DNA of 64,000 bases from an uncultured Candidatus Saccharibacteria bacterium (GTDB lineage Bacteria; Patescibacteriota; Minisyncoccia; Phycocordibacterales; UBA2100), in NCBI GenBank assembly GCA_964471165.1, contig CAYYEX010000002.1, positions 60,965 to 124,964 on the forward strand. Reading direction: 5' to 3'. Positions 1 to 63,845 of the stretch are shown here, piece after piece. The notes under the pieces are model-generated. The model made no database searches. It was given only the letters and a program-made list of their open reading frames with translations, and had not been told where the DNA came from. The stretch's first letter is position 1. Every line of letters starts with the position of its first letter. The position numbers were made by a program, and so were the translations under genes.

Positions 1-25
1 ACAGGGCATAGGGTGTCGACATCGT

Positions 26-1018
26 ATGAATACGGCATCCCGCATCCAGCGTGGCATCGTCGGAACCATCATTGCAGTGGCTGTACTTACGGCGCCTGCA
101 TTTGCTGCAGCGGGAAGCGCATCCGTTCTCACTAAGCAGGTAGTACCAGTAGGGGGTAACTCGTGCGCGCCATTGTTCGTGAAGGCAGTTACACCATACA
201 TCTATGATGGTGAACTTCACTCGTTCGACATTGTGCTTTCTGACGCCTCCTACGTGGCAATTCTGGGTGCGGCAGGGGAGGCATCGATTCCATTCAACTA
301 TATGAGCCGCCGCTTTGATGCCGATGGTTCGCTTCGCATTCACGCAGACACAACAGTGGTAATAAATGGAACAGTTCCAGTTACTGTTACGCTGCTTTCG
401 GCACTTCCTGGTGCACCGGTGTGTCTCTCAACTGTTTCATTCACAACTGATACACAAGGGAACATTGAGACGAGTAACCCAATTTCAGTACCAACAAGCC
501 CAATAGACACAGGGGAGCCAGGTATTGACTCTTCGACTGGTTCGGGAAGCGGTGTAACACAGGGCGGGGGATCCCAGACTGGTTCTACAGGCAGCTCGAA
601 GCCAACCCCAGCTGTAGGTACCACTTCGGGCACATCGACCACAATCGGGGCGATAGTGGCGAATATGTGCACCAAGAATGGCGCATACCAACTGTGGTTC
701 ATCCTCCTTGCGGTATTCTTCGTAATCGCAGCATTCGTTGGGCTCTCGGAGCCAGCACTTGCACTGCGCCACGGCGCTCTGCCAGCTGTCTTGATTGGCG
801 TTCCGCTTATCGGACTACTCCTCTTCTGGTACTACGCCACAGGTTGCCGCTTGAGCTACTTTATCCCGGTGATTCTGCTCGTAGCAGCTGCTATCGGCCT
901 CTATAGCGCCTATCGGACAGGCCCGGTTATGCGCCCGATGATAGAGCTGCCCGCCGAAAAGAAGAACACGGTAACCACGGTTACCAAGACCGAGGAGAAA
1001 AAGACAGACATTCAATAG
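26..1018 (+). CDS. hypothetical secreted/membrane-anchored protein with Ser/Thr/Gly-rich linker and C-terminal hydrophobic helices
   Basis: 330-aa ORF; N-terminal hydrophobic signal-like segment (IAVAVLTAPAFAAAGSAS); low-complexity STG-rich stretch; three hydrophobic helices near C-terminus. Confidence 0.5.
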   Translation: MNTASRIQRGIVGTIIAVAVLTAPAFAAAGSASVLTKQVVPVGGNSCAPLFVKAVTPYIYDGELHSFDIVLSDASYVAILGAAGEASIPFNYMSRRFDADGSLRIHADTTVVINGTVPVTVTLLSALPGAPVCLSTVSFTTDTQGNIETSNPISVPTSPIDTGEPGIDSSTGSGSGVTQGGGSQTGSTGSSKPTPAVGTTSGTSTTIGAIVANMCTKNGAYQLWFILLAVFFVIAAFVGLSEPALALRHGALPAVLIGVPLIGLLLFWYYATGCRLSYFIPVILLVAAAIGLYSAYRTGPVMRPMIELPAEKKNTVTTVTKTEEKKTDIQ

Positions 1019-1110
1019 GTAATTGAAGAGGGGAATATTGCTGGAGCGCTTAACTGCTGTATAATCCAGCCATTGCGGAGCGGCTTCGAAGGATGCCGTT
1101 TCGCTCGTGA

Positions 1111-1145
1111 GTACATAATGCGGATATGGCTTCGGTGGATGATAC
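1111..1145 (+). repeat. pseudo-copy of the 5' part of tRNA-Gly (gtacataatgcggatatgg... repeated at 1176-1194 where it starts the real tRNA)
   Basis: 19-nt identical direct repeat 1111-1129 vs 1176-1194, followed by a diverged D-arm-like sequence; seen by eye. Confidence 0.6.
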
Positions 1146-1184
1146 TTTGCCACCAGTCATGAGAGAGTAGGGGAAGTACATAAT

Positions 1185-1255
1185 GCGGATATGGTTTAGT
1201 GGTAGAACACGTCCTTGCCAAGGACGGGATCGGGGTTCGATTCCCCGTATCCGCA
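1185..1255 (+). tRNA. tRNA-Gly (anticodon GCC), CCA not encoded
   Basis: cloverleaf folded by hand: acceptor GCGGATA/TATCCGC, D-arm, anticodon stem CGTCC/GGACG with loop TTGCCAA, T-arm GGGGTTCGATTCCCC, discriminator A. Confidence 0.85.
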
Positions 1256-1258
1256 CAT

Positions 1259-1298
1259 GAAATACAAAAGGGGCGCGACAAGCGCCCCTTTTGTATTT
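1259..1298 (+). terminator. long perfect hairpin (aaatacaaaaggggcgcg-acaa-cgcgccccttttgtattt) with T-run: intrinsic terminator after tRNA-Gly
   Basis: 18-bp perfect inverted repeat with GC-rich core followed by TTTTG. Confidence 0.75.
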
Positions 1299-1301
1299 CA
1301 G

Positions 1302-1428
1302 GCGAGAGGAGGGGAATCGAAGGCGAGCACTGGGGCCCCGTCAGAAGACGGGGATGTGCGAGCAGGGCCGAGCGGAGAAATGTTCTGACGAGAACATTTC
1401 GAGCGCTTGGCCGCTTCCCCATATCCGC
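1302..1428 (+). ncRNA. tRNA-linked structured element, copy 1 (unnamed family)
   Basis: 5' end GGGGAATCGAA = reverse complement of the tRNA-Gly T-arm; 3' end TTCCCCATATCCGC repeats the tRNA-Gly 3' end (13/14 identical); conserved hairpin CCCCGTC-AGAA-GACGGGG; GACG-loop hairpin AAATGTTCT-GACG-AGAACATTT. Copies 2-4 share the architecture. Confidence 0.6.
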
Positions 1429-1541
1429 TTGACAGAGAACGTGCGACGGCAAAGCGAGAGGCGAGGGAGATTCCTCGTATTGGGCAGTAATCTGTCAGTC
1501 TCCACAAACAAAACAATCTTTGCGCGTGCTAAAATGCCGCA

Positions 1542-2294
1542 ATGCTTAAGGAATTGCAGGATATCGGTTTGTCGGAGAAGGAAGCACGAGTCTACTTGTC
1601 TGCACTCGAGCTCGGCCGCACAACAGCCGAAAAGCTCGCAAAACACGCCAAGGTCAATCGATCCACCACCTACGTGCAGATTGAGACACTCATGAAAAAG
1701 GGCCTCATGAGCACCTACGAGGAGGACAAGAAGACATACTTTGCTCCTGAGTCACCAGAACTCCTACGACGCTTCCTCACAAAACAAAAAGACGATCTCT
1801 CTGCACGCGAACGCGACCTGGCAGTCGTGCTACCCACACTCCTGCAGCAGTTTGATGGTGCAGGGGAGCGCCCCGTGGTGCGTTTTTTTCCAGGAAAAGA
1901 GGGAATCACTTCGGTTCGCGAGGAGATGCTCAACGTAAAAGATAAGCATATTTTTATCACGCTTACATACGAGCATCTTTCGAAGATTTATACGGAAAAG
2001 GAACTCGACGACTACTCTGACCGCAGAAAAGCCCTCGGCGTTCACTCTAAGGGAATCTACCTTCACAAGGAGTACTTCAGCAAGGCGGGGCTCGATAGCT
2101 TAACCGAGCGACGATTGTTGCCTCCTGACACGCTCCCACTCACCATAGATTTGTATATATACGACGACAAAACTGCAATTCTTTCTCTGCAGGGCACGTT
2201 GTTTGCGATGGTTGTACAAAGCGTACAAATCTCCTCGAGTATGCGCCTCATCTTCGACTTCTTGTGGGATAGGGCACAGGGACCAACTAAATAA
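1542..2294 (+). CDS. TrmB-family helix-turn-helix transcriptional regulator
   Basis: N-terminus LKELQDIGLSEKEARVYLSALELGRTTAEKLAKHAKVNRSTTYVQIETLMKKGL matches the TrmB HTH signature; 250 aa. Confidence 0.7.
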   Translation: MLKELQDIGLSEKEARVYLSALELGRTTAEKLAKHAKVNRSTTYVQIETLMKKGLMSTYEEDKKTYFAPESPELLRRFLTKQKDDLSARERDLAVVLPTLLQQFDGAGERPVVRFFPGKEGITSVREEMLNVKDKHIFITLTYEHLSKIYTEKELDDYSDRRKALGVHSKGIYLHKEYFSKAGLDSLTERRLLPPDTLPLTIDLYIYDDKTAILSLQGTLFAMVVQSVQISSSMRLIFDFLWDRAQGPTK

Positions 2295-2639
2295 AAAAGA
2301 GACCGGGGAAACTGCAAGCGTTAGCTCACAATTCCTCCGGCTCCATTGTCGTCCAATCGTCCAAGCAATTCTGCTTAGGCGGATGCGTTGACGCTCAGGT
2401 CAACGCGAAGTGGGCCTTGCAATCACCCACCGTCGCCGAAGCGCCTGTGCGTCTGGCCGACCTTCTTCACGGTCATTTTCGGGCGAAGCGGCATGTGAAT
2501 GCCGGTCTTGACGTCGGGCATGGTTCTCTCCATTGCCATGAAACCCCGGGGAAAGGGCAAGGGTAGACCCCTGAGCCACGCTCCACCAAAAAGTGCAGTG
2601 ATTCGTTGCCTACACAGGAGTATATTCCGTCAAAAGTTT

Positions 2640-2830
2640 CTGTCAATCATTGTATGTGTATAAGCTCATATTGCGATATACGATTGACATTCATTTATGT
2701 CAAATATGGCTCTATTTAGAGCCATATTTGGGTTTTCCACAGCATGTTTGTCAGCGTTCGTTGACAGAATATGCCGAGGGTATATATTGATTATGTTTAT
2801 GGAAGATAACATTACAAAGCGAAGAGAGAA
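2640..2830. promoter_or_regulatory. AT-rich regulatory region with several perfect palindromes (TTGACAT-n6-ATGTCAA; ATATGGCTCTA-tt-TAGAGCCATAT; TGTCAGCG-ttcg-TTGACAG)
   Basis: local GC drop; three operator-like inverted repeats within about 120 nt; possibly a small acidic ORF (2793-2933) downstream. Confidence 0.4.
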
Positions 2831-3224
2831 CATCATCGAGACGATGCGAACGCTGGTGCTCGCAGGGCAGATGCGCGGCGAGGAGCGGGACGAAAACGAT
2901 GATACGGATCTCCGTGGAGGGGACAGCGATTAAGAGAAAATCTGATTCTTATGAGCTATCTCAACCACAGTCCGCCAACGCTCGCAGAGAGATGTACCAG
3001 ATTTAACATAGAACCATGACAAAAAATCACAACAACGGACCACCAGCTTGAAAAAGAATCCTTATTAACCAAAACACATTTTCATGACTAACGCACAGGA
3101 CCACGCTCCGCCAGAGGAAAACGAGACGAGTCTAGAAGAGGAACAATTACTAGGGGATGGGGGCTAGCTAAAAATATTAAATGTATGGAACCCGTTATTG
3201 AACCGCCGTAGTGGTCGACAAGGC

Positions 3225-3296
3225 ACCGGGATAGCTTAGTGGGCAGAGCATCAAGTTCGGAACTTGAATGTGGAGGTTCGAATCCTTCTCCCGGAA
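3225..3296 (+). tRNA. tRNA-Pro (anticodon CGG), CCA not encoded; position 1:72 appears mismatched (A:A) so the exact 5' end is uncertain
   Basis: D-arm GCTT-AGTGGGCA-GAGC, anticodon stem TCAAG/CTTGA with loop TTCGGAA, T-arm GGAGGTTCGAATCCTTC, acceptor 3' TCCCGGA. Confidence 0.7.
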
Positions 3297-3347
3297 CTAC
3301 AAACAGTTGGGCCCTAACGCATTCGCGCTGGGGTCTTACTGTTTGTT

Positions 3348-3473
3348 TCTGGGAAAGGATTCGAAAGCGAACACTGGGGCCCCGTCAGCAGACGGGGATG
3401 TGTGAGCAGGGCCGAGAGAAGTTTTGATTCGACGGAATCAAAACGAGCTCTTGGCAGAATCCTTCTCCCGGAA
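3348..3473 (+). ncRNA. tRNA-linked structured element, copy 2
   Basis: 5' end CTGGGAAAGGATTCGAA approximates the reverse complement of the tRNA-Pro 3' end; 3' end GAATCCTTCTCCCGGAAC (3457-3474) is an 18/18 direct repeat of tRNA-Pro 3280-3297; hairpins CCCCGTC-AGCA-GACGGGG and TTTTGATTC-GACG-GAATCAAAA. Confidence 0.65.
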
Positions 3474-3483
3474 CAAACAAAGA

Positions 3484-3512
3484 ACGCCCAGGCACTGCCG
3501 TGGGCGTTTTTG
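3484..3512 (+). terminator. intrinsic terminator (CGCCCA..TGGGCG + TTTTTG) closing the tRNA-Pro/element unit
   Basis: GC-rich hairpin followed by a T-run. Confidence 0.6.
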
Positions 3513-3536
3513 CAGAAATCGCAGAGAACAGATTCT

Positions 3537-4121
3537 TCAGATTCGGCGATACCGAACGACACCGAGCTCCTTCCCGAACCGGGGTCCGATGGAACGCCAC
3601 AGTACGTCGATATTGGTTTCGATGCGCTGTTTGCGCTTTCCGACTGGGTCGACCAACGAAACAATGCGCTCCTCGGTGCGAAAGGTCTCCACGAGACTGT
3701 CGTGAATATGCTGATTCACGGGGTCTTCAGGATGAACCTCTTCGGAGTGATACTCGATTTGCAGGTCAAAGTCGAACCGAAGTGCCCCTTCCACCAGTTT
3801 TTGGAAATCGCTGATTTGTCTGAAACGAATGGCTTCGCCCTGGATACGGATGCGCCTACGCCGAAAGAAATTGTTGATTTCGGGCACAATGTCCATCGTC
3901 GAGACACCCAAGCTCTTAACGGCCGTCATAACGGCCATTTCAGATCTGAACGCTACAGCATTTTCAGCCGCAACACCGACTCCAATCGCTTTGGCGATGT
4001 CTTCTTGATCGATTAGGCCGTAGCCGTTGCGCTCGACAACCATCTGCACGCACGCTGCCGTACAGGCATTGGGCATCTGGACCAGACGTACGTATTTCCG
4101 ACCCACTGACAATGTAGTCAT
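3537..4121 (-). CDS. hypothetical protein with C39-like (papain-fold) cysteine-peptidase signature
   Basis: N-terminal LVQMPNACTAACVQMV fits the Q-x4-C-x-A-A...M pattern of C39 bacteriocin-processing peptidase domains; His-containing region downstream; 194 aa; inference from motif only. Confidence 0.4.
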   Translation of the reverse strand: MTTLSVGRKYVRLVQMPNACTAACVQMVVERNGYGLIDQEDIAKAIGVGVAAENAVAFRSEMAVMTAVKSLGVSTMDIVPEINNFFRRRRIRIQGEAIRFRQISDFQKLVEGALRFDFDLQIEYHSEEVHPEDPVNQHIHDSLVETFRTEERIVSLVDPVGKRKQRIETNIDVLWRSIGPRFGKELGVVRYRRI

Positions 4122-4286
4122 GTTCGTTCATACCCCCCGCCATGGATACTTTCTGTATAGTGCCGATTGTCCGGAAAATAGCAATAGAACACAAAAAAAG
4201 TTTGTCAATACTTTCTGACAGTTTGGCAGCCCAATTAGGCACGCGTTATAAAAAAACGAAGATGTAATGTAGTATTCCAAAGTTCT

Positions 4287-4358
4287 GCTCTCATAGTGAA
4301 ATGGATATCACGACAGTCTTCGGAACTGTTATTGGGGGTTCGAATCCCTCTGGGAGCA
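4287..4358 (+). tRNA. tRNA-Arg (anticodon TCG), CCA not encoded
   Basis: acceptor GCTCTCA/TGGGAGC (one G-T pair), D-arm GTGA-AATGGATA-TCAC, anticodon stem ACAGT/ACTGT with loop CTTCGGA, T-arm GGGGGTTCGAATCCCTC. Confidence 0.8.
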
Positions 4359-4404
4359 AAAAATTAACGAGGACAACGCGAAGCGTGGGACGACTATAAT
4401 TTTG

Positions 4405-4527
4405 TCGCTCCCAGAGGGATTCGAAGGCGAATCCTGGGGCCCTGTCACCAGACGGGGATGGATGAGTGTGGTCAGGCGGAGTTTTGGTTCGACGGAACCA
4501 AAACGAGCGCTTGACCGAATCCCGAGC
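4405..4527 (+). ncRNA. tRNA-linked structured element, copy 3 (immediately upstream of cca)
   Basis: 5' end GCTCCCAGAGGGATTCGAA (4407-4425) is the exact reverse complement (19/19) of the tRNA-Arg 3' end 4339-4357; hairpins CCCTGTC-ACCA-GACGGGG and TTTTGGTTC-GACG-GAACCAAAA; 3' end CGAATCCCGAG. Confidence 0.65.
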
Positions 4528-4589
4528 AATCTATGCTCATGGCCGAATCCGAAACACAGGAATCCCCAAATCGAAACAAAACAGTTACA

Positions 4590-6068
4590 ATGACCCACAT
4601 GAAAAAAGCGGACCTGGAGATTCCATCGGAAATCCGTGCGCTCCATAAAACTGTGAAAGACGCCGGGTATGAGGCATTCTTGGTAGGCGGATGCGTGCGT
4701 GACCTAATCATTGGTCGCGAACCAAAAGACTGGGACATCACCACAAATGCGACCCCCGAGCAGATTCAAGCACTGTTCGAGGAAACATTTTATGAAAACA
4801 GCTACGGGACGGTGGGTGTGGTTACCCAATCCGAAAACCCCAAGCTCAAGGTGGTAGAAATCACGCCATACCGCATCGAGGGCAAGTACAGCAATGCCCG
4901 TCATCCCGACGAAATTCGCTTTAGCGACAATCTACACGACGACCTTGAGCGTCGTGACTTTACGATAAACGCGATTGCCTACGACCCAGCGACAGGGGAG
5001 CTGGTGGACGAACACGGAGGCCGTGACGATATAGGGCGCAAAGTTCTTGTAACGGTGGGGGACGCGCACGCGCGATTTGAGGAAGATGCACTACGCATGC
5101 TGCGCGCCATCCGTATTGCCGCTGAGCTCGAATTTGCAATCGACGGCACAACCATGGTGGGCATTTCCGGAAACGCCGCCCAGCTTGAAAAGATTTCCAA
5201 GGAGCGTATCCGTGATGAATTCAGTCGCATTCTGCTCTCATCGACACCGCTCACAGCTATTTATATGGCTCAAAAGCTTGGCATTTTGAAGTATGTGATG
5301 CCGGAACTTGAAGCGGGTATTGGCTGTGACCAAAACCAGGCGCACTCGTTTGATGTGTTTGAACACCTTTTGCGGAGCTTGCAGCACGCGGCCGATGAGA
5401 ACTGGCCTCTCGATGTACGCCTTGCAGCCCTTTTGCACGATGTGGGCAAGCCGGCAACGCGTGAATGGTCAGAAGACAAGAAAGACTGGACGTTCCACGG
5501 ACACGACGTGGTTTCTGCCCGTATGGCCAAGAAAATCCTGACTGATTTGAAATATCCCAAAGATCTCATTGAGAAAGTCGTGCTGCTTATCCGATGGCAC
5601 ATGTTTTTCTCCGACCCGGACCTCATTACGCTCTCTGCGGTACGCCGACTCATTGCCCGAGTAGGACAGGAAAACATAGCCGACCTCCTGAACTTGCGCG
5701 TTTGCGACCGAATCGGCACCGGACGACCAAAGGCACACCCGTTCCGACTGCGTAAGTACATGTCGATGATAGACGAAGCGCTGCGTGACCCGGTTTCAGT
5801 GAGCATGCTTGCAGTAGATGGCAGCAGATTGATGGAAATCGGCGAGCCGGCTGGCCCGCGCATTGGTTGGATTCTTCATGCGCTTTTGGAAGAGGTTTTA
5901 GACGAACCAACTAAGAATACAGCCGTATATTTGGAGTCTCGAGCACAGGAAATGATGGCGATTGGGGATGAGGAATTGAAAACCCTAGGCGAGCAGGGGA
6001 AGGACCGCCGCGCAGCGGAAGATGAGGCCGCTATTGCTCTTCTACGCAAGAAGCACCACGTGTCGTAG
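4590..6068 (+). CDS. cca: CCA-adding enzyme (tRNA nucleotidyltransferase) with C-terminal HD domain
   Basis: GGCVRDLIIGREPKDWDITT nucleotidyltransferase motif; RFEEDALRMLRAIR; HD motif LLHDVGK; start taken at MTHMKK (the ORF track begins 19 codons earlier at 4533). Confidence 0.85.
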   Translation: MTHMKKADLEIPSEIRALHKTVKDAGYEAFLVGGCVRDLIIGREPKDWDITTNATPEQIQALFEETFYENSYGTVGVVTQSENPKLKVVEITPYRIEGKYSNARHPDEIRFSDNLHDDLERRDFTINAIAYDPATGELVDEHGGRDDIGRKVLVTVGDAHARFEEDALRMLRAIRIAAELEFAIDGTTMVGISGNAAQLEKISKERIRDEFSRILLSSTPLTAIYMAQKLGILKYVMPELEAGIGCDQNQAHSFDVFEHLLRSLQHAADENWPLDVRLAALLHDVGKPATREWSEDKKDWTFHGHDVVSARMAKKILTDLKYPKDLIEKVVLLIRWHMFFSDPDLITLSAVRRLIARVGQENIADLLNLRVCDRIGTGRPKAHPFRLRKYMSMIDEALRDPVSVSMLAVDGSRLMEIGEPAGPRIGWILHALLEEVLDEPTKNTAVYLESRAQEMMAIGDEELKTLGEQGKDRRAAEDEAAIALLRKKHHVS

Positions 6069-6473: not shown

Positions 6474-7271
6474 CTAGATATCAAGCTCTAGTGTCACCGG
6501 GCAATGGTCGGAGCCCATAACGTCGGCATGGATTTTTACACGGGAGACAAGCGGAACGAGTGATTCGCTCACAAAGAAATAGTCTATGCGCCATCCCACG
6601 TTTCGCTCACGTGCGTTCGAAAAATGACTCCACCACGTGTAGTGTCCTTTACCCTGAGTTTGAATGCGAAACGCATCAACAAACCCCGCAGCAATCATGG
6701 CGTCGATGCCAGAGCGCTCCTCGAGGGTAAAACCTTTTTTGCCTTCATTGGGTTTTGGGTTGGCGAGGTCGTCCAGAGTATGGGCCACATTCAAGTCTCC
6801 GCAGAATATAACGGGCTTCGTTTTCTCGAGATGTTTCATGTACTCGAGAAACGCCGGGTCCCAGTTTTTGTGACGTAGGGGAATGCGGCTCAGGTCGTCC
6901 TTTGAGTTTGGAGTGTATACCGTCACAAAGTGGAAATCGTCATATTCGGCAGCCACAATACGGCCCTCGTTGTTCGGGTCGCCATATTTATCTACAAAAT
7001 CGTATTTTGCACAGATATCCGCAGGGAAGTCATATGAAACTTCGATTGGGGAGGGTTTGGTAAAGATAGCAGTGCCCGAATAGCCCTTCTTAGTCTTGGA
7101 CGAGTTCCAAAACTCCTCGTAATCCGGAAGGTCTACCAGAGATTGGTGCTGTTCAGCCTTCGTTTCCTGGAAACCAACGATGTCGGGGTTTTCTTTATCG
7201 AAAAATGGTGTGAGTAAACCCCTCTTATGAACGTTGCGTATCCCGTTTATATTCCAGGTGGCCAGTTTCAT
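6474..7271 (-). CDS. xth: exodeoxyribonuclease III / AP endonuclease (EEP family)
   Basis: MKLATWNINGIR N-terminus; GDLNVAHT and SDHCPV motifs typical of the ExoIII family. Confidence 0.8.
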   Translation of the reverse strand: MKLATWNINGIRNVHKRGLLTPFFDKENPDIVGFQETKAEQHQSLVDLPDYEEFWNSSKTKKGYSGTAIFTKPSPIEVSYDFPADICAKYDFVDKYGDPNNEGRIVAAEYDDFHFVTVYTPNSKDDLSRIPLRHKNWDPAFLEYMKHLEKTKPVIFCGDLNVAHTLDDLANPKPNEGKKGFTLEERSGIDAMIAAGFVDAFRIQTQGKGHYTWWSHFSNARERNVGWRIDYFFVSESLVPLVSRVKIHADVMGSDHCPVTLELDI

Positions 7272-7697: not shown

Positions 7698-8606
7698 TTA
7701 TCGCCGTCGTTTGCCGTGAAATGCTTTGTGCACGTCGCGAAGATGGGAGTCGGTAACATGCGTGTATACCTGAGTGGTTGCAATATTCGCGTGTCCAAGC
7801 AGCGCTTGAACGGAACGCAGGTCTGCGCCGTTGGAAAGCAAATCAGTAGCAAACGAGTGGCGAATAACGTGCGGTGTAACCTTGCGCGTGATGCCGGCTT
7901 TCATTGCGTAATTTTTTACGAGCCGCTCAACAGAGCGGGGAGTGAGCCGTGAGAGATCCTTTGTCTTACGCGCTTTACTGTAGCCGACAAAAAGCGCTTC
8001 GCCAAAATCTCCACGCTTTTTCAAATATGCCGCGACTGCTTTTTTTGCTTCATCTGAAAGAAATACCACGCGCACCTTTTCGCCCTTACCGCGCACAGAA
8101 AACTCGTCACGCGTTAAATCGAGGTCTTGATTCAAGTTGCACAGTTCGGATACACGCAGCCCTGTTGAAAAGAGGAGCTCGAGAATCGCACGGTCACGCA
8201 ACGCCGAAAGCGAATCGCCCGTCGGCCCTTTCATCAAGCGCTCAAGCTCGGCCGAGGTAATTAAGTCGAGGTCGCGACCGCCCACTTTGGCAAGCTCAAT
8301 GCGCTCTGGATTCAGACTCACCACGTCGCGCTTGCGAAGAAATTTTAAGAACGCGCGTAATGCGATGAGGTGATAATTCTGCGTATTCTTTTTCATCGTG
8401 CCACTGGTGCCAGCAGAGCGATTGAGTGCAATGCGGAATTCACGCACCATCTGCTCGGTAACAGCGCCTGGATTCTTCACTTTTGCGAAATCAAAGAATC
8501 GTTTCAGGTATCGGTCGTAATTCTCAACCGTTTTTACCCCGCGACCTTTTTCGATTTCGAGATATTCGAGGAACTGTGTTTTCAGGAGTCCGAGGTCCGT
8601 TGCCAT
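7698..8606 (-). CDS. tyrosine site-specific recombinase, XerC/XerD type
   Basis: C-terminal HVIRHSFATDLLSNGADLRSVQALLGHANIATTQVYTHV catalytic motif (R..HxxR..Y); 302 aa. Confidence 0.8.
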   Translation of the reverse strand: MATDLGLLKTQFLEYLEIEKGRGVKTVENYDRYLKRFFDFAKVKNPGAVTEQMVREFRIALNRSAGTSGTMKKNTQNYHLIALRAFLKFLRKRDVVSLNPERIELAKVGGRDLDLITSAELERLMKGPTGDSLSALRDRAILELLFSTGLRVSELCNLNQDLDLTRDEFSVRGKGEKVRVVFLSDEAKKAVAAYLKKRGDFGEALFVGYSKARKTKDLSRLTPRSVERLVKNYAMKAGITRKVTPHVIRHSFATDLLSNGADLRSVQALLGHANIATTQVYTHVTDSHLRDVHKAFHGKRRR

Positions 8607-8643: not shown

Positions 8644-9840
8644 CTACCGCTCGTCCTCGAGATACTTTTTCTTTTTCAGCTTGTCGGGTAGATACGATTC
8701 TTGGTCGTACATTTTGTATCCTTTGTGATAACCGACGTCTTTCATCAGCTTCGTTGGGGCATTGCGTACCTTCATCGGGATGGGGAGTGTGCCGTGCAGC
8801 TTTACATCCGCAAGCGCTGCAAAGACCGCGTCGTATGAACGACGATCTTTTTTGCACTGCGAGAGATAGGCAACACCGTGCGCGAGGTTAATCGTGGCTT
8901 CGGGGTAGCCGATCTTGTTCACTGCTTCAAATACTGCATTTGCCACCACCAGCGCAGTGGGCTGTGCGAGCCCGATATCTTCGCTCGCAAAAATAACCAT
9001 TCTTCGTGCAATAAACTTCGGGTCTTCTCCTGCATCCACCATACGGGCCAAATAATAGAGCGCGGCGTCTGGTTGGGACGCGCGCATTGATTTTATGAAT
9101 GCAGAGATAGTGTTGTAGTGTTCTTCGCCTTTTTTGTCGTAGCGCAGGTGAGTGGATTGAATTGCCTCTTTGAGTGAATCAATGGTGATGTCTCCATATA
9201 GCTTCTCTGCCGTCTCAAGCGCAGTGAGCGCCTGGCGCGCGTCACCCGCGGCCATTTGCACGAGCCAGTCGCGCGCATTTTTTGGTATGTGTATTTTGGT
9301 TCGTGCAAGTATCTTCTCCATTTCTTTTTCCGAGTGTTCGTTGAGTACGAATACTCGCGCCCGCGAAAGCAGTGGGGAAATAATTTCAAAACTCGGGTTT
9401 TCAGTGGTTGCCCCGATAAGCGTAATGTCGCCTCGCTCAACAAAAGGGAGTAGAAAATCTTGCTGCGCTTTGTTGAAGCGGTGAATCTCGTCTACAAACA
9501 AAACCACCGGTTTCTTTTTGAGTAGCGTGCCCTTTGTCGGCAACACACGCTTAATGTCGTCTTTGCCGGCCTCGACGGCGGAGAGCTCGTGAAATTCCGC
9601 ATCGAGCGCGGTCGCATATATGCGTGCGAGCGTGGTTTTGCCGCTGCCTGGTGGCCCCCAGAGAATGAACGAAAATAATTCTTTCTTTTCTATCGCCACG
9701 CGCAGCGGCTTTCCCTTACCGGTCAGATGCTCCTGCCCGACGAACTCGGAAAGCGCTTTTGGACGCACTTGTGAGGCGAGCGGTTCCACGCCATGAGATA
9801 TGTGGCTTTGGTTCTCTGCGGATTCCGGTTTCATAAACAT
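8644..9840 (-). CDS. rarA: replication-associated recombination protein A (AAA+ ATPase)
   Basis: [23 protein letters not shown] followed by Walker [14 protein letters not shown]; 398 aa; MgsA/RarA-like C-terminus. Confidence 0.8.
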
Positions 9841-9991
9841 CTAAAATTTGTCGGACATGTCGGAGACTTTATCTCACGGGGTCCGAGGCTTCAGTATACG
9901 CTTGTCGTATTTATTGTAGACATGGCTGTTTTCCCGTTTTCCCCGCAAAATTTCCTTGCACGATGTGGCTCACGCGGTATCCTAAGGCGAT

Positions 9992-10495
9992 ATGAACACA
10001 CGCAACATGGTTATCTGGGTCATCGTCCTCATCGTGGTACTCCTCGGCGGCTACGCGACCTACAAATTTATGAGTGGAGATTCGTCGGGTGCAGCATCTG
10101 CACAACAGAATGCTACCTCGACCGCCGCTACTGGCGACCAGGTTCAGGCACAGGAAGTTAAGGTAGGTACGGGCGCTGAAGCGACCCCGGGCTCACAAGT
10201 ATCGGTGCTATACGTCGGTAAATTGACCGATGGCACCGTTTTTGACAGCTCACAGGCACACGGTAATCAGCCGCTTACCTTCGTACTTGGCTCCCAGGAC
10301 ATGATTCCAGGCTTCCAAATCGGGGTAAATGGCATGAAAATCGGTGGTCAGCGCGTTATGGCAGTCCCTCCGGCCCTCGCCTACGGGGACAAGCCAGTTA
10401 CCAACCCTCAAACTGGCGCAACCATCATCCCAGCGAACTCAACTATCGTATTTGAAGTCGAGCTCGTCGACGTGAAGCCAGCCCCAACTCAGTAA
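9992..10495 (+). CDS. FKBP-type peptidyl-prolyl cis-trans isomerase with N-terminal membrane anchor
   Basis: VSVLYVGKLTDGTVFDSS...LTFVLGSQDMIPGFQIGVNGMKIGGQRVMAVPPALAYG FKBP signature. Confidence 0.8.
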   Translation: MNTRNMVIWVIVLIVVLLGGYATYKFMSGDSSGAASAQQNATSTAATGDQVQAQEVKVGTGAEATPGSQVSVLYVGKLTDGTVFDSSQAHGNQPLTFVLGSQDMIPGFQIGVNGMKIGGQRVMAVPPALAYGDKPVTNPQTGATIIPANSTIVFEVELVDVKPAPTQ

Positions 10496-27499: not shown

Positions 27500-27622
27500 G
27501 TGGGTGACTTTTTTATTGGCTCGGTCACAGATATTTTTATTGCCGTCGCAATAAAAATTCTCTGACCACGCCTCGCGGTCCCGCAAGCTTGCGGGACATC
27601 GCTCCGGCCGAGTAGTCTAAAG

Positions 27623-27649
27623 AAAAAGGATGCGCAGGCATCCTTTTTC
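27623..27649. terminator. bidirectional intrinsic terminator AAAAAGGATGC-gcag-GCATCCTTTTT
   Basis: perfect hairpin flanked by A-run and T-run between convergent genes. Confidence 0.75.
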
Positions 27650-27989
27650 ATTGACTACTCCCCATCATCGTAATGGAGATTCCAGCGTAGACGATAATCG
27701 GTACGATAGAGACGAGGCAGTAGTATGGAGCACCATACAGGCCCAGTAGGTATTGTCCGGTATGCGCCGGTGGACCGAATGGATACGTTACGGTTGACGG
27801 CGTCCAGATGTAAATACCACCCACCGGCGGGCCGACCGTGGTCCAAATCGCCTGGTTGTAGCAGAAAATAATCTGCGTAATAGGGCCGCCGAACGGATTC
27901 GTTTGCGCAACGGCAGCGGTCGGTGCCAAAAGAAGGAGTACACCCGCGAGCATTCCTGCGATTGTGCGCATACGTACAGTATACGACAT
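27648..27989 (-). CDS. small exported protein, VirB2/TrbC-pilin-like candidate
   Basis: signal peptide MSYTVRMRTIAGMLAGVLLLLAPTAAVAQ then about 85 aa with two hydrophobic segments and two Cys; start uncertain (27989 or 27971). Confidence 0.4.
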   Translation of the reverse strand: MSYTVRMRTIAGMLAGVLLLLAPTAAVAQTNPFGGPITQIIFCYNQAIWTTVGPPVGGIYIWTPSTVTYPFGPPAHTGQYLLGLYGAPYYCLVSIVPIIVYAGISITMMGSSQ

Positions 27990-28020
27990 TGATGGACACG
28001 GGTGCGTTATACTTTGAATA

Positions 28021-28890
28021 ATGAAGCACCCGGTGTTCCTGACGCTTTCCGTCGCGGTCATCTTTGTACTCGTTGGCTTGTATTTTATTGAACGTCAGCG
28101 TGCCGTCACCCCGAATGGAGCAAGTGCATCGTGGGAAACTGTCGGGGGATACATCGAGCCCACCGACTCGATTTCTGAGCAACCAACACAAGCACAACCG
28201 CTAGTTGAGACCGATAATAACCCGGAGACTCTCGTGATTCCTGTCGCAACAACATCGGCGACAAAGAAGCCCGCAAACGCGCCTGCAAAAGATGATGGTG
28301 TGTTTGACTACAACGCAATGCTCGCACAACTGCAGCATGAAACTACGTCGAACGCTTCTGCACAGGCAGATAAAACATTTGAAAAATTGATGGGTGCCTT
28401 TTCGTTCGCCCCTGCTATCGCAGCCCCGGCACAAAAAGTGAAGACGCCCGAGCAACAGGCTCTCTATATATACGGCAACGAAATCGGCTCGCGAATTAAG
28501 GGTTTCGCCGCCGTGAACCCAAATATGGCTCAAACACTCACTAATCAGATTAACCACCGCACCGAACCCTCCGCTGGAGTCCCCGTACGTAACCTTGGCA
28601 CCCGCTATATTGCGCTCGGAGAGAGTATTCTTGCAATCCAAAATGTTCCGCCCTCGGTCGAATCTGCCCACCATACGCTCGGAGAATCCTATCTTCATCT
28701 TGGTGAGGCGCTCAGCCGCATACCTGATGCAACCGAAGACCAGGCATTTATTGCTGCTATTACCACATACAACAACAAGGCCGACTCATACACGCGAGCG
28801 TTCGTCGGCATGGTTACACTGTTTTCAGCACTCAATGTCACATTCGAAGAAACTGACCCTGGTTCCGTTTTTAGCTTCCGTCATAACTGA
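28021..28890 (+). CDS. hypothetical membrane-anchored protein (paralog of the next gene)
   Basis: N-terminal TM; C-terminal motif ...ITTYNNKADSYTRAF... matched by ...LLRTYNEKEQGIYDSF... in 28926-29783. Confidence 0.5.
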   Translation: MKHPVFLTLSVAVIFVLVGLYFIERQRAVTPNGASASWETVGGYIEPTDSISEQPTQAQPLVETDNNPETLVIPVATTSATKKPANAPAKDDGVFDYNAMLAQLQHETTSNASAQADKTFEKLMGAFSFAPAIAAPAQKVKTPEQQALYIYGNEIGSRIKGFAAVNPNMAQTLTNQINHRTEPSAGVPVRNLGTRYIALGESILAIQNVPPSVESAHHTLGESYLHLGEALSRIPDATEDQAFIAAITTYNNKADSYTRAFVGMVTLFSALNVTFEETDPGSVFSFRHN

Positions 28891-62672: not shown

Positions 62673-63131
62673 CTATCTATATACGCGAATTGAAAGCAGT
62701 TGTCGCGCGCAGTACACAGCACATACGCCGAGGATGAATCCGCCCAGCACATCGACTCCGTGGTGCACGCCGGCGGCCACGCGCGCTATTCCGACGCAGA
62801 GTGCAACCACAAACAGAGCGACGCCAAGTGTGCGTCGCTTGGTAAATACCAGTGCGGCGAGTGTTGTGGCAACGAGTGTATGCATAGACGGAAATCCGTT
62901 TTCAATCCCGTGGGGGATGAGTGGGTCAAAAGCACCGACAATAAAGGGGCGAGGATTGTCATACAAATGTGTGCCGATTTTGGCAAAAATGTAGGCAAGC
63001 AAGAGTGAAAAAATTGAAAGTGAGACAAAGTGTATACGTTCTTTCTCTGGAAGCATCCAGATAACCTGTAGCAGGGCAAGCGGCACGAGAATGATGAGGT
63101 ACTGAGCGGCAAAAACAATCAATGCGTCCAT
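62673..63131 (-). CDS. PAP2-family phosphatase (membrane)
   Basis: PSMHT...HHGVDVLGG PAP2 motifs; 152 aa. Confidence 0.65.
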   Translation of the reverse strand: MDALIVFAAQYLIILVPLALLQVIWMLPEKERIHFVSLSIFSLLLAYIFAKIGTHLYDNPRPFIVGAFDPLIPHGIENGFPSMHTLVATTLAALVFTKRRTLGVALFVVALCVGIARVAAGVHHGVDVLGGFILGVCAVYCARQLLSIRVYR

Positions 63132-63192
63132 GGAAAAACTTTAGCATGGGCACTCGCTCACTCCTCAAGGGAATGCTATATTTTCGACACTT

Positions 63193-63265
63193 GCGCTCAT
63201 AGCTCAGTTGGTAGAGCAGCTCCCTTTTAAGGAGACGGTCCCAGGTTCGAATCCTGGTGGGCGCA
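63193..63265 (+). tRNA. tRNA-Lys (anticodon TTT), CCA not encoded
   Basis: acceptor GCGCTCA/TGGGCGC, D-arm GCTC-AGTTGGTA-GAGC, anticodon loop CTTTTAA, T-arm CCAGGTTCGAATCCTGG; one G:A mismatch at 27:43. Confidence 0.8.
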
Positions 63266-63278
63266 CACGAATCACAAA

Positions 63279-63300
63279 CGGCACGAAAGTGCCGTTTTGT
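63279..63300 (+). terminator. intrinsic terminator ACGGCAC-gaaa-GTGCCGT + TTTGTGTTT
   Basis: hairpin plus T-rich tail directly after tRNA-Lys. Confidence 0.6.
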
Positions 63301-63342
63301 GTTTACGAGTGAGCCCACAGCAATGTGCCTGCGCACATTGCG

Positions 63343-63449
63343 TCAGGATTCGAACGCCGCAGCGGGGTCCCGTGCAGCAGCACGGGTCGCGAGGCGGTGC
63401 CCAGACAAATCTGAGCGGCGGCGAGGATTTAGTCGAGGGAGAATCCTGG
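63343..63449 (+). ncRNA. tRNA-linked structured element, copy 4 (more diverged)
   Basis: 5' CAGGATTCGAAC = reverse complement (12/13) of the tRNA-Lys T-arm; hairpin CCCGTGC-AGCA-GCACGGG equivalent to the CCCCGTC-AGCA-GACGGGG of copies 1-3; 3' end GAATCCTGG repeats the tRNA-Lys T-arm 3' half. Confidence 0.5.
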
Positions 63450-63452
63450 TTC

Positions 63453-63845
63453 TTACAACCGCCACGAGCCACCAACTTTGCGGGGGGTCTTCGCGGCTGC
63501 AGCTTTTGAGCGATGGTTCCATTTATCCATCACCACCGTGTACACCGCAAAAAACGTCCACGCAGGGAGCACGTCGAGTATCGGCATGAACTCTATAACC
63601 GCCCCAAACGTGTACGACGGTGCGCGGCGCTTGAGTATTCCGCCGCCGTGGTGATGGAGCATGATTGCCATACCTATCATCGCCACAAAATTGAGTACGG
63701 GGGCAAGTAAAATCCCAATGACCAAAATTGCCAGAAGCATCTGGATAAAATCAATCATGACGCCCAATGTAATAAGCCCGAAGGCTAATCCTGCCCCGAT
63801 AGGTTTCGAATCGTCCATACGGCTAGAGCGGAAGGTCGAACGCAA
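63453..63845 (-). CDS. hypothetical polytopic membrane protein
   Basis: 130 aa; three hydrophobic helices; HHHGGG patch. Confidence 0.4.
   Translation of the reverse strand: MRSTFRSSRMDDSKPIGAGLAFGLITLGVMIDFIQMLLAILVIGILLAPVLNFVAMIGMAIMLHHHGGGILKRRAPSYTFGAVIEFMPILDVLPAWTFFAVYTVVMDKWNHRSKAAAAKTPRKVGGSWRL

Follow-up and report, generated by a model that had tools for sequence, protein, structure and literature searches.

Tyrosine-integrase elements that target tRNA genes comprise P4-like phages, integrative conjugative elements and genomic islands, and include a class that uses the T-loop sublocation. These elements insert in the 3' part of a tRNA gene, keep the tRNA intact by supplying a copy of its 3' end, leave a direct repeat that runs from the T loop to the end of the tRNA and can be stacked in tandem by a single tRNA; each of them uses one attachment (att) site. 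Casposons, which depend on Cas1 and generate target-site duplications of 14–15 bp, are often found at tRNA 3' ends. In CTX-phi, the target site is present in two inverted copies, which anneal when the DNA is single-stranded and so rebuild a duplex target. Here we describe a family of short non-coding elements behind tRNA genes, as seen in a stretch of 64,000 nucleotides (the window) of contig CAYYEX010000002.1. Homologues of its gene for the CCA-adding enzyme (4533–6068) place the genome in Candidatus Kaiserbacteria (Paceibacteria, candidate phyla radiation (CPR)). Behind all four tRNA genes of the window the order is a spacer hairpin, an inverted repeat (IR), a core that forms a three-way junction and a direct repeat (DR), the IR and the DR being an inverted and a direct copy, respectively, of the segment of the tRNA from the T loop to the 3' end (segment B). 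The novel part is that these arms match a different tRNA each time around conserved modules.

As in the integrase elements, the DR equals the 3' segment of the tRNA, which is restored. However, the elements measure 110–250 nt, have no integrase, and carry an extra, inverted copy of the att core together with a conserved folded core. Furthermore, whereas integrase elements have one att site each, one core subfamily (B-type) occurs behind tRNAs with at least 23 anticodons and one spacer module (S1) behind three tRNAs. With casposons the elements share the target at the tRNA 3' end and an unusually long target duplication, but they have neither Cas1 nor conserved terminal inverted repeats and are about 100-fold smaller.

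Integron attC sites and the attP(+) of CTX-phi are imperfect palindromes of about 60–140 nt in which structure rather than sequence is conserved and strand-specific signals are present. A pattern of structure over sequence is likewise seen here, with strand-biased G-U (G.T) pairs, and, as in CTX-phi attP(+), pairing of the IR with segment B or with the DR would rebuild a target duplex. In contrast to both, the elements have no R-box (GTTRRRY) and no conserved arms of dif type; their arms change from one neighbouring tRNA to the next, and the core is a three-way junction with invariant bases. Like transposable elements of the miniature inverted-repeat type (MITEs) and the repetitive extragenic palindromic (REP) and bacterial interspersed mosaic element (BIME) repeats, the elements are small, non-coding, repeated, intergenic, able to fold into hairpins, patchy among relatives and subject to decay. 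Unlike these, their terminal repeats copy the flanking gene, the duplication spans 14–23 nt rather than 2–10, the interior is conserved with covariation across genera, and no parent insertion sequence was found. Finally, an acceptor-like helix on a T-like helix with grafted domains recalls the tRNA-like domain of transfer-messenger RNA (tmRNA), the YrlA Y RNA and viral tRNA-like structures, but in the element the T loop is replaced by the core, and there is a separate mimic for each tRNA species, beside its gene. The Rfam models of these tRNA-mimicking RNAs gave no match at E ≤ 10.

Element copies in the window

ARAGORN and the Rfam tRNA model identified four tRNA genes in the window (Gly, Pro, Arg and Lys), all on the forward strand and none of them encoding CCA. 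An initial annotation of this DNA had proposed that a hairpin and an element of about 125 nt with a shared core follow tRNA-Gly, tRNA-Pro and tRNA-Arg. This was borne out: GGGGCCCYGTCANNAGACGGGGATG in the shared core occurs three times against none expected in shuffles, and the three copies are alignable along ~110 nt. They fold as a three-way junction of a closing helix, P1, made by both arms, and helices P2 and P3. Element length is roughly 110–130 nt in the window and 110–170 nt in the family, 110–250 nt being the widest figure.

The first host or target gene is tRNA-Gly-GCC (1185–1255; Rfam tRNA 71.4 bits), whose segment B (1236–1255) is the source of the element arms. It is followed by spacer module S2 (1257–1301), a terminator-like hairpin (AAATACAAAAGGGGCGCG-ACAA-GCGCCCCTTTTGTATTT) that also lies 3' of tRNA-Gly-GCC at loci L087 and L089 (E2) of relatives and 3' of tRNA-Gly-TCC in L066. 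The element itself (1302–1432; covariance model match 1310–1421, E=0.0043) has an A-type core and consists of a 5' arm (1302–1321, the IR), P2 (~1323–1363), P3 (~1366–1411) and a 3' arm (1415–1428, the DR). Behind tRNA-Pro-CGG (3225–3296), a spacer hairpin and an A-type element occupy 3297–3476 (model match 3354–3465), with the spacer hairpin at 3297–3349, the IR at 3350–3365, the core at 3366–3456 and the DR at 3457–3474; a strong terminator-like hairpin lies 3' of this element, at ~3484–3512. Behind tRNA-Arg-TCG (4287–4358) come spacer module S1 (4359–4406; AAAAATTAACGAG, a small hairpin and GACTATAATTTTGTC) and another A-type element (4407–4527; model match 4414–4525), composed of an IR (4407–4425), a core (4426–4515) and a decayed DR (4516–4527; CGAATCCC..GAGC, with a 5-nt deletion). 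The fourth copy, a more divergent one of B-type, lies behind tRNA-Lys-TTT (63193–63265) and a terminator-like hairpin (63274–63302), at 63311–63450 (model match 63343–63449, 96.7 bits, E=5e-21). Its 5' side is made up of a complement of the acceptor (63311–63318), a hairpin termed P0 (63321–63340, loop CTGC) and a complement of the T arm (63344–63354; 12/12 for 63344–63355). The core extends up to 63440, and the DR (63441–63450) matches at 10/10 positions and is divergent beyond. All of these features are on the forward strand.

Arms copied from the upstream gene

The IR matches the reverse complement of the tRNA 3' part at 19/19 positions in the Arg copy (4407–4425) and at 11/11 in the Gly copy (1311–1321), and the DR matches the tRNA at 17/17 positions in the Pro copy (18/18 including the next C) and at 13/14 in the Gly copy. 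These figures had been given correctly before, except for the Pro IR, for which about 17/18 had been claimed: its match is 11/11 ungapped or about 15/16 allowing one indel. The Arg DR matches at 8/8 positions only, up to its 5-nt deletion. That the ends track the upstream tRNA, as had been noticed in the window, also holds across species. Where tRNA-Arg changes from ctcTggg to ctcCggg, the IR changes from ccAgag to ccGgag, and the Gly IR changes from ggggaatcgaa to cggagaatcgaa.

The usual DR is a perfect copy of the tRNA from T-loop position ~57 to the 3' end, and CCA is part of it wherever the tRNA gene encodes CCA. In most B-type copies it has 0/12 mismatches and ends at the tRNA 3' end. 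Its length is 14–23 nt, values of 38–81 nt being confined to tandem arrays; the L128 DR continues 4 nt beyond the tRNA end. The IR is less exact than the DR (0–4 mismatches per 12 positions), and other sequence often takes the place of its T-loop part. The tracking was also examined independently of the element, by seeking the reverse complement of each tRNA's own TTCGAnTCCnnn (12-mer) near 196 tRNAs. This complement was found within 450 nt downstream of 24 tRNAs and upstream of two, where chance predicts ~0.001 per tRNA.

The same covariance model, a search that the initial annotation had recommended, recovered the Gly, Pro, Arg and Lys copies of the window and added a fifth on the reverse strand (model match 27621–27515, E=1.6e-7), which is not behind a tRNA. 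This copy (27508–27660) starts at the stop codon of an open reading frame (ORF; 27648–28061, reverse strand) and lies between convergent genes. It comprises an upstream arm, GAGTAGTC (27660–27653), a P0-like hairpin, GGATGC-CTGC-GCATCC (27643–27628), that is flanked by GAGTAGTC and by the inverted arm GACTACTC (27617–27610), and a direct arm, AGCCAATAAAAAAG (27521–27508), that copies AGTCAATGAAAAAG. Because the arms of this copy are local sequence, the source of the arms is whatever lies upstream and not the tRNA as such.

A partial copy of the 5' end of tRNA-Gly-GCC is present about 60 nt upstream of the gene, at 1112–1137 (GCGGATATGGCTTCGGTGGATGATAC compared with GCGGATATGGTTTAGTGGTAGAAC), downstream of a TGTATAAT box (1060–1067). 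A like copy lies upstream of tRNA-Gly-GCC in L087, L088, L001, L002 and L012 and follows each species' own acceptor (GCGGGCATGG in L001, GCGGGTATGG in L002), as a 5'-side counterpart of the arm tracking on the 3' side.

Core structure and covariation

The fold z-scores of the Gly, Pro and Arg copies range from -5.7 to -7.6 on the forward strand, the reverse strand being poorer. The core subfamilies are A-type, with the Gly, Pro and Arg copies of the window, and B-type, with the Lys copy and most metagenome matches; shorter and longer core variants also occur. Common to all subfamilies are the three-way junction, a J1/2 segment that reads (U)CGAAC or GAGAAC, tandem G.A loops and, in P2, a G(Y)GAG strand opposite GGA(R)C. 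The junction nucleotides of the core are invariant. K-turn and box C/D identities were considered for the G.A loops and rejected by eye, since neither the bulge geometry nor the box sequences fit.

The compensatory changes reported for the two internal hairpins are as described, both on the sequence and on the alignment. The covariance model was built with a hand-set structure on five B-type copies, because MAFFT/RNAalifold across subfamilies gave a poor consensus. In 83 model matches, 90.7% of cells are paired, compared with 70.3% in shuffles and 34–46% with slid partners; as the alignment was fitted to the model, pairing is somewhat inflated, but the margin is large. Both sides have changed in 33 of the 36 pairs. 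In the core helices, read on the tRNA-sense strand, G-U pairs outnumber A-C pairs by 57 to 14, and the corresponding counts for the P1 arms are 29 and 22. Given the covariation and the asymmetry of G-U over A-C, a folded single strand of tRNA sense, either RNA or single-stranded DNA, is clearly under selection. Covariation had been claimed and is strong, while the accompanying conclusion of selection at the RNA level overreaches, since the strand may be single-stranded DNA.

B-type copies have an extra conserved hairpin of 9 bp, P0, with a loop that is usually CUGC. Its 30 distinct stems contain 260 Watson-Crick, 6 G-U and 1 A-C pairs. P0 splits the 5' arm at the boundary between acceptor and T stem, being placed 1–2 nt past a 7-nt stretch complementary to the acceptor 3' strand in at least 16 copies, at no fewer than seven kinds of tRNA. 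Different genomes share spacer module S1 (AAAAATTAACGAG, hairpin, GACTATAATTTTGT), which occurs in conserved form behind Arg-TCG, Gly-GCC and Gly-TCC; in the alignment it is flanked on both sides by entirely tRNA-specific blocks.

Distribution and novelty

The loci compared were the syntenic loci of relatives and 80 loci around CCA-enzyme genes from Paceibacteria and outgroups. About 110 model matches were obtained behind tRNAs with at least 23 anticodons, and the family is widespread in Paceibacteria. Positive loci are labelled Kaiser-, Taylor-, Yonath-, Zambryski- and Campbellbacteria, among others, and no element was detected in the distant loci examined (Microgenomates, Firmicutes, Proteobacteria, Spirochaetes). 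A metagenome scan with a probe for the B-type core, devoid of tRNA-derived bases, retrieved at least 120 stretches. Of the 73 B-type cores that could be evaluated among the matches listed, 54 have a same-strand tRNA no more than 250 nt upstream, again with at least 23 anticodons, and on the contigs among these listed matches 62 of 107 tRNAs have an element, in a sample that is biased towards carriers.

The initial annotation had placed one element behind every tRNA, which is true of the window (4/4) and not beyond it: in loci chosen regardless of the element the share was 24/196, and relatives have empty sites. The true share exceeds 24/196, because the covariance model added about ten further copies in the same loci.

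The family had been proposed as undescribed. At the gathering threshold, Rfam 15 recognized only the four tRNAs in the whole window. At E ≤ 10, cmscan of window positions 1–6000 and 63100–63520 and of L088 positions 9400–10000 returned tRNAs and sub-threshold noise only, and neither A-type nor B-type copies matched any Rfam 15 family. Full-text literature searches found no description of such elements. Whatever its nature, the family enlarges the non-coding inventory of Patescibacteria by a structured group that is large and counts hundreds of copies in public metagenomes, and its partial copies of tRNA tails beside tRNA genes could mislead genome annotation.

Occupancy and turnover in relatives

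Close relatives are here genomes whose CCA-adding enzyme is 77–89% identical to that of the window. Empty sites at the same tRNAs, for which the initial annotation had proposed to look, were found in two of them: the site behind tRNA-Arg is filled in the window, L086, L088 and L001 and empty in L087, which has an identical tRNA, and in L002, and in L089 it holds a different element type. Behind tRNA-Gly-GCC the window and L087 have an A-type element, L088 and L001 a B-type one, L002 none and L089 two in tandem. Downstream of the proximal Gly element of L089 come a copy of the tRNA tail and then the terminator and A-type element that are found directly behind tRNA-Gly in the window. This is the pattern expected if a new unit had entered the tRNA tail and pushed the old tail downstream. 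Tandem arrays are also present in L135, L033 and L110. In L128, the cores behind Arg-TCG and Lys-CTT are 98% identical and 260 nt apart, and their arms are wholly different; the Gly copy of L087 and the Arg copy of the window have the same hairpin 2. Decay is visible in the DRs of the Arg and Lys copies of the window and in element copies among relatives.

In L086 (385–640), an insertion of ~90 nt that resembles a B-type P2 (ccggagcgcggcggcgcgaggc) lies inside P2 of the Arg element, which suggests one element nested within another.

Two further arrangements of tRNA genes were noticed. tRNA-Gly (with its element) and tRNA-Arg are adjacent in L087 and L088 and ~2.9 kb apart in the window, where the interval (1440–4286) contains a TrmB-like gene (1542–2294), tRNA-Pro-CGG with its element and an ORF (3537–4121, reverse strand); this rearrangement is bounded by element copies. 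In L001 (~7050–7250), a second tRNA-Pro copy is split into two halves around a complete tRNA-Pro-TGG. An inverted repeat (GGGGTGAGAATTTCTTT / AAAGAAATTCTCCCC) bounds the unit, and 25 nt downstream the tRNA 3' end recurs as a copy of 30 nt.

A candidate element homing to tRNA tails

Our leading explanation, held tentatively and given slightly less than an even chance, is a selfish, non-autonomous element that inserts by homing to tRNA 3' ends, makes an att-like duplication there and has a folded single strand as its working form. The copies are modular, consisting of segment B, a spacer (S1, S2 or the acceptor complement with P0), the IR, the core (P2, P3) and the DR. A unit of spacer, IR and core would enter and duplicate B, as happens at the att sites of tRNA-integrating elements; with B duplicated, the tRNA would stay intact, and the old 3' end and terminator would be pushed downstream. 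The working form would be the tRNA-sense single strand, as replication-exposed DNA or as a read-through transcript, in which the IR may pair with B or with the DR and rebuild the target duplex, the core and P0 providing a scaffold that is read by a putative trans-acting enzyme. Copies would spread, be replaced between relatives when recombination uses the tRNA and the DR, be homogenized with neighbouring copies by gene conversion, and decay.

Both a mobile att-duplicating element and a tRNA-mimic RNA had been offered in the initial annotation. The comparative data fit the former better, given the turnover, the tandem arrays, the nested insertion, the copy with local, non-tRNA arms and the DR edges that sometimes extend past the tRNA end, while the latter gains some support from P0. 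The identity of cores is explicable by gene conversion, because there is homology at both core edges, but conversion cannot move S1, since S1 lies between two tRNA-specific blocks. If mobile, the element would be a compact system that lands harmlessly by essentially any tRNA gene, its arms swapped and its scaffold constant. This would represent a new logic of target choice, and possibly a programmable scaffold for insertion or recognition.

Several observations weigh against mobility. We know of no mobile element that builds its arms from the target in both orientations, so that the key step would be unprecedented. No recombinase, transposase or larger ORF-bearing relative was found, neither core pattern is present in 2.9 million viral contigs, and no distant direct repeats of the tRNA tail were detected within 10 kb at ~170 loci. 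The "empty" Arg sites retain a motif resembling the left half of S1, and they may therefore be secondary losses. Much of the turnover could be deletion, gene conversion or recombination after DNA uptake, without transposition. Moreover, the core, with its invariant junction and tandem G.A, is far better conserved than the interior of ordinary MITEs, and the position of P0 at the acceptor/T boundary looks like tRNA mimicry at the RNA level. This tRNA-like placement, together with the invariant junction bases and the partner swap predicted for the co-transcript (see below), speaks against a purely DNA-level view.

A separate question is how the arms arise. It is possible, though we doubt it, that they are rewritten and not inherited, a constant scaffold being re-equipped at each new tRNA with antisense and sense copies of the acceptor/T arm. 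This estimate is a joint one, since the idea covers either a 'self-programming' tRNA-homing element or a tRNA-specific mimic RNA. Rewriting would entail templated replacement of the guide, for example by fold-back copying or by template switching nucleated by the spacer hairpin, and to our knowledge such a step occurs in no mobile element or RNA family.

Alternative explanations and transcription signals

The alternative that survives best, although we regard it as rather unlikely, is a co-transcribed RNA that mimics the acceptor/T arm of the tRNA, is useful to the host or to the element itself, and is read through from the tRNA promoter. Such an RNA would have a 7-bp helix identical to the cognate acceptor stem, P0 as a side arm at the acceptor/T boundary, and a helix identical to the T stem, whose loop is replaced by the P2/P3 junction. 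It could serve as a cognate-specific mimic or decoy for a reader of the acceptor/T arm (RNase P/Z, the CCA-adding enzyme, a synthetase or a tRNA-targeting toxin) or, alternatively, as a switch with two states, the IR being paired with the tRNA 3' half in one and with the DR in the other. The covariation, the invariant junction bases and the excess of G-U over A-C on the tRNA-sense strand are consistent with this, as are the consistent location of the element on the tRNA strand downstream of the tRNA and the recurrent placement of P0 just after the 7-nt acceptor complement. From species to species, the IR also keeps its perfect complementarity even as the DR decays: for Arg it is 19/19 in the window and in L001 alike, and one change co-varies. 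In addition, folding predictions for co-transcripts show a swap of partners, with the tRNA 3' half paired to the IR and the tRNA 5' strand to the DR, at equal or lower energy (-117 vs -100 kcal/mol for Arg, in silico).

However, the element is dispensable, being absent from many tRNAs and from whole close relatives, and element types are interchangeable at one tRNA and occur as tandem and nested copies. Decayed or truncated DRs are present in the window itself (Arg, Lys), one copy lies behind a protein gene with non-tRNA arms, and the L128 DR runs past the tRNA end. A terminator-like hairpin intervenes between tRNA and element in 31 of 82 copies (and follows the element in 25 of 82), on which ground obligatory co-transcription was rejected, not decisively. 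Nor was there a signal for a promoter of the element's own: -10-like hexamers occur upstream of 18 of 99 copies, the opposite strand giving 12 and control windows downstream giving 28. The exception is S1, the one spacer with an invariant TATAAT/TATATT, 10–14 nt before the arm; the invariant motif with this perfect -10-like hexamer (GACTATAAT/GACTATATT) ends 8–10 nt before the 5' arm, at 4393–4398 in the window and at the same position in L086, L088, L089 and L012. It could be an element promoter, in the S1 spacer class only, as no -10-like signal was found in the other spacer classes. A mimic RNA would be the first dedicated acceptor/T-arm mimic encoded beside each tRNA and would have a bearing on tRNA processing or protection in the reduced genomes of the CPR.

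It is improbable that the copies are passive palindromic repeats, ancient and REP-like or associated with terminators, that have no dedicated mobility. These would be kept similar by gene conversion and quasi-palindrome template switching, which would hold IR, DR and tRNA tail in register, and would be gained and lost only through recombination and deletion. Neighbouring copies are indeed the most similar ones, as in the Gly, Pro and Arg copies of the window, which lie within 3.3 kb, and in the L128 pair with its 98% identity at 260 nt. The shared hairpin 2 of the L087 Gly and window Arg copies, the near-symmetry of G-U and A-C pairs in the P1 arms (29 vs 22) and the failure to find an enzyme point the same way. 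This explanation nevertheless falters on S1, which conversion cannot move between tRNA-specific blocks, and leaves unaccounted the strong purifying selection that acts in many genera on the structure of the core and on its junction bases, the sense-strand G-U bias and the new proximal insertion in L089.

Very improbable is an intron-like T-loop element, in which segment B, spacer, IR and core would be removed by a small new ribozyme or a host enzyme, the IR guiding the 3' exon (the DR), and in which the spare 3' exon of the unit would keep the tRNA from ever being inactivated by insertion: the lowest-energy co-transcript fold is a 'giant tRNA', with the tRNA 5' strand paired to the DR and the insertion in the T loop, and the DR has its left edge at a fixed place within the T loop, but splicing is needed at no locus, as every upstream tRNA is complete, the core has only ~95 nt and matches no ribozyme or intron family in Rfam, and the junctions have no bulge-helix-bulge motif. 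A T-loop intron or split tRNA was rejected, the initial annotation having already set a tRNA intron aside because the tRNAs are complete: for seven solo elements, upstream sequence was joined at every offset to the DR and never yielded a tRNA, whereas controls did. The completeness of the tRNAs, this outcome and the lack of any matching intron family in Rfam likewise speak against a group I, group II or archaeal-type tRNA intron.

Other identities were considered and discarded. A tRNA, tmRNA or tRNA-like gene does not agree with the calls of ARAGORN and RF00005, which recover the four real tRNAs only, or with the replacement of the element T loop by the core. Classical MITEs do not fit, as the arms are entirely different from copy to copy, matching the tRNA next to them, the direct repeat spans 14–23 nt and not 2–10 bp, and no ORF-bearing relative was found in ~170 loci. 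The R''/R' boxes of integron attC sites (RYYYAAC ... GTTRRRY) are absent from the alignments, and the outer ends are tRNA-derived and variable. The primer-binding site of a retroelement is excluded by the bases before the IR, which are GTC, CTT or ATA and not TGG(T) (window Arg, L001 Arg, L036 Arg, L012 Gly). Protein coding was dismissed since only short, frame-inconsistent ORFs cross the copies and substitutions are stem-compensatory. An integrase carried by the element is incompatible with its 110–250 nt, which hold no ORF; a nearby XerC/D-like gene (7698–8606) is syntenic in relatives with and without elements.

Neighbouring features

The gene for the CCA-adding enzyme directly follows the tRNA-Arg element in the window. 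This adjacency looks like conserved synteny rather than a functional link, because the gene follows tRNA-Arg in relatives with or without the element. Immediately behind the Arg element, at 4528–4590 on the forward strand, the T-loop-like fragments CCGAATCC, GGAATCCCC and AAATCGAAAC were recognized by eye and are probably remnants of older copies.

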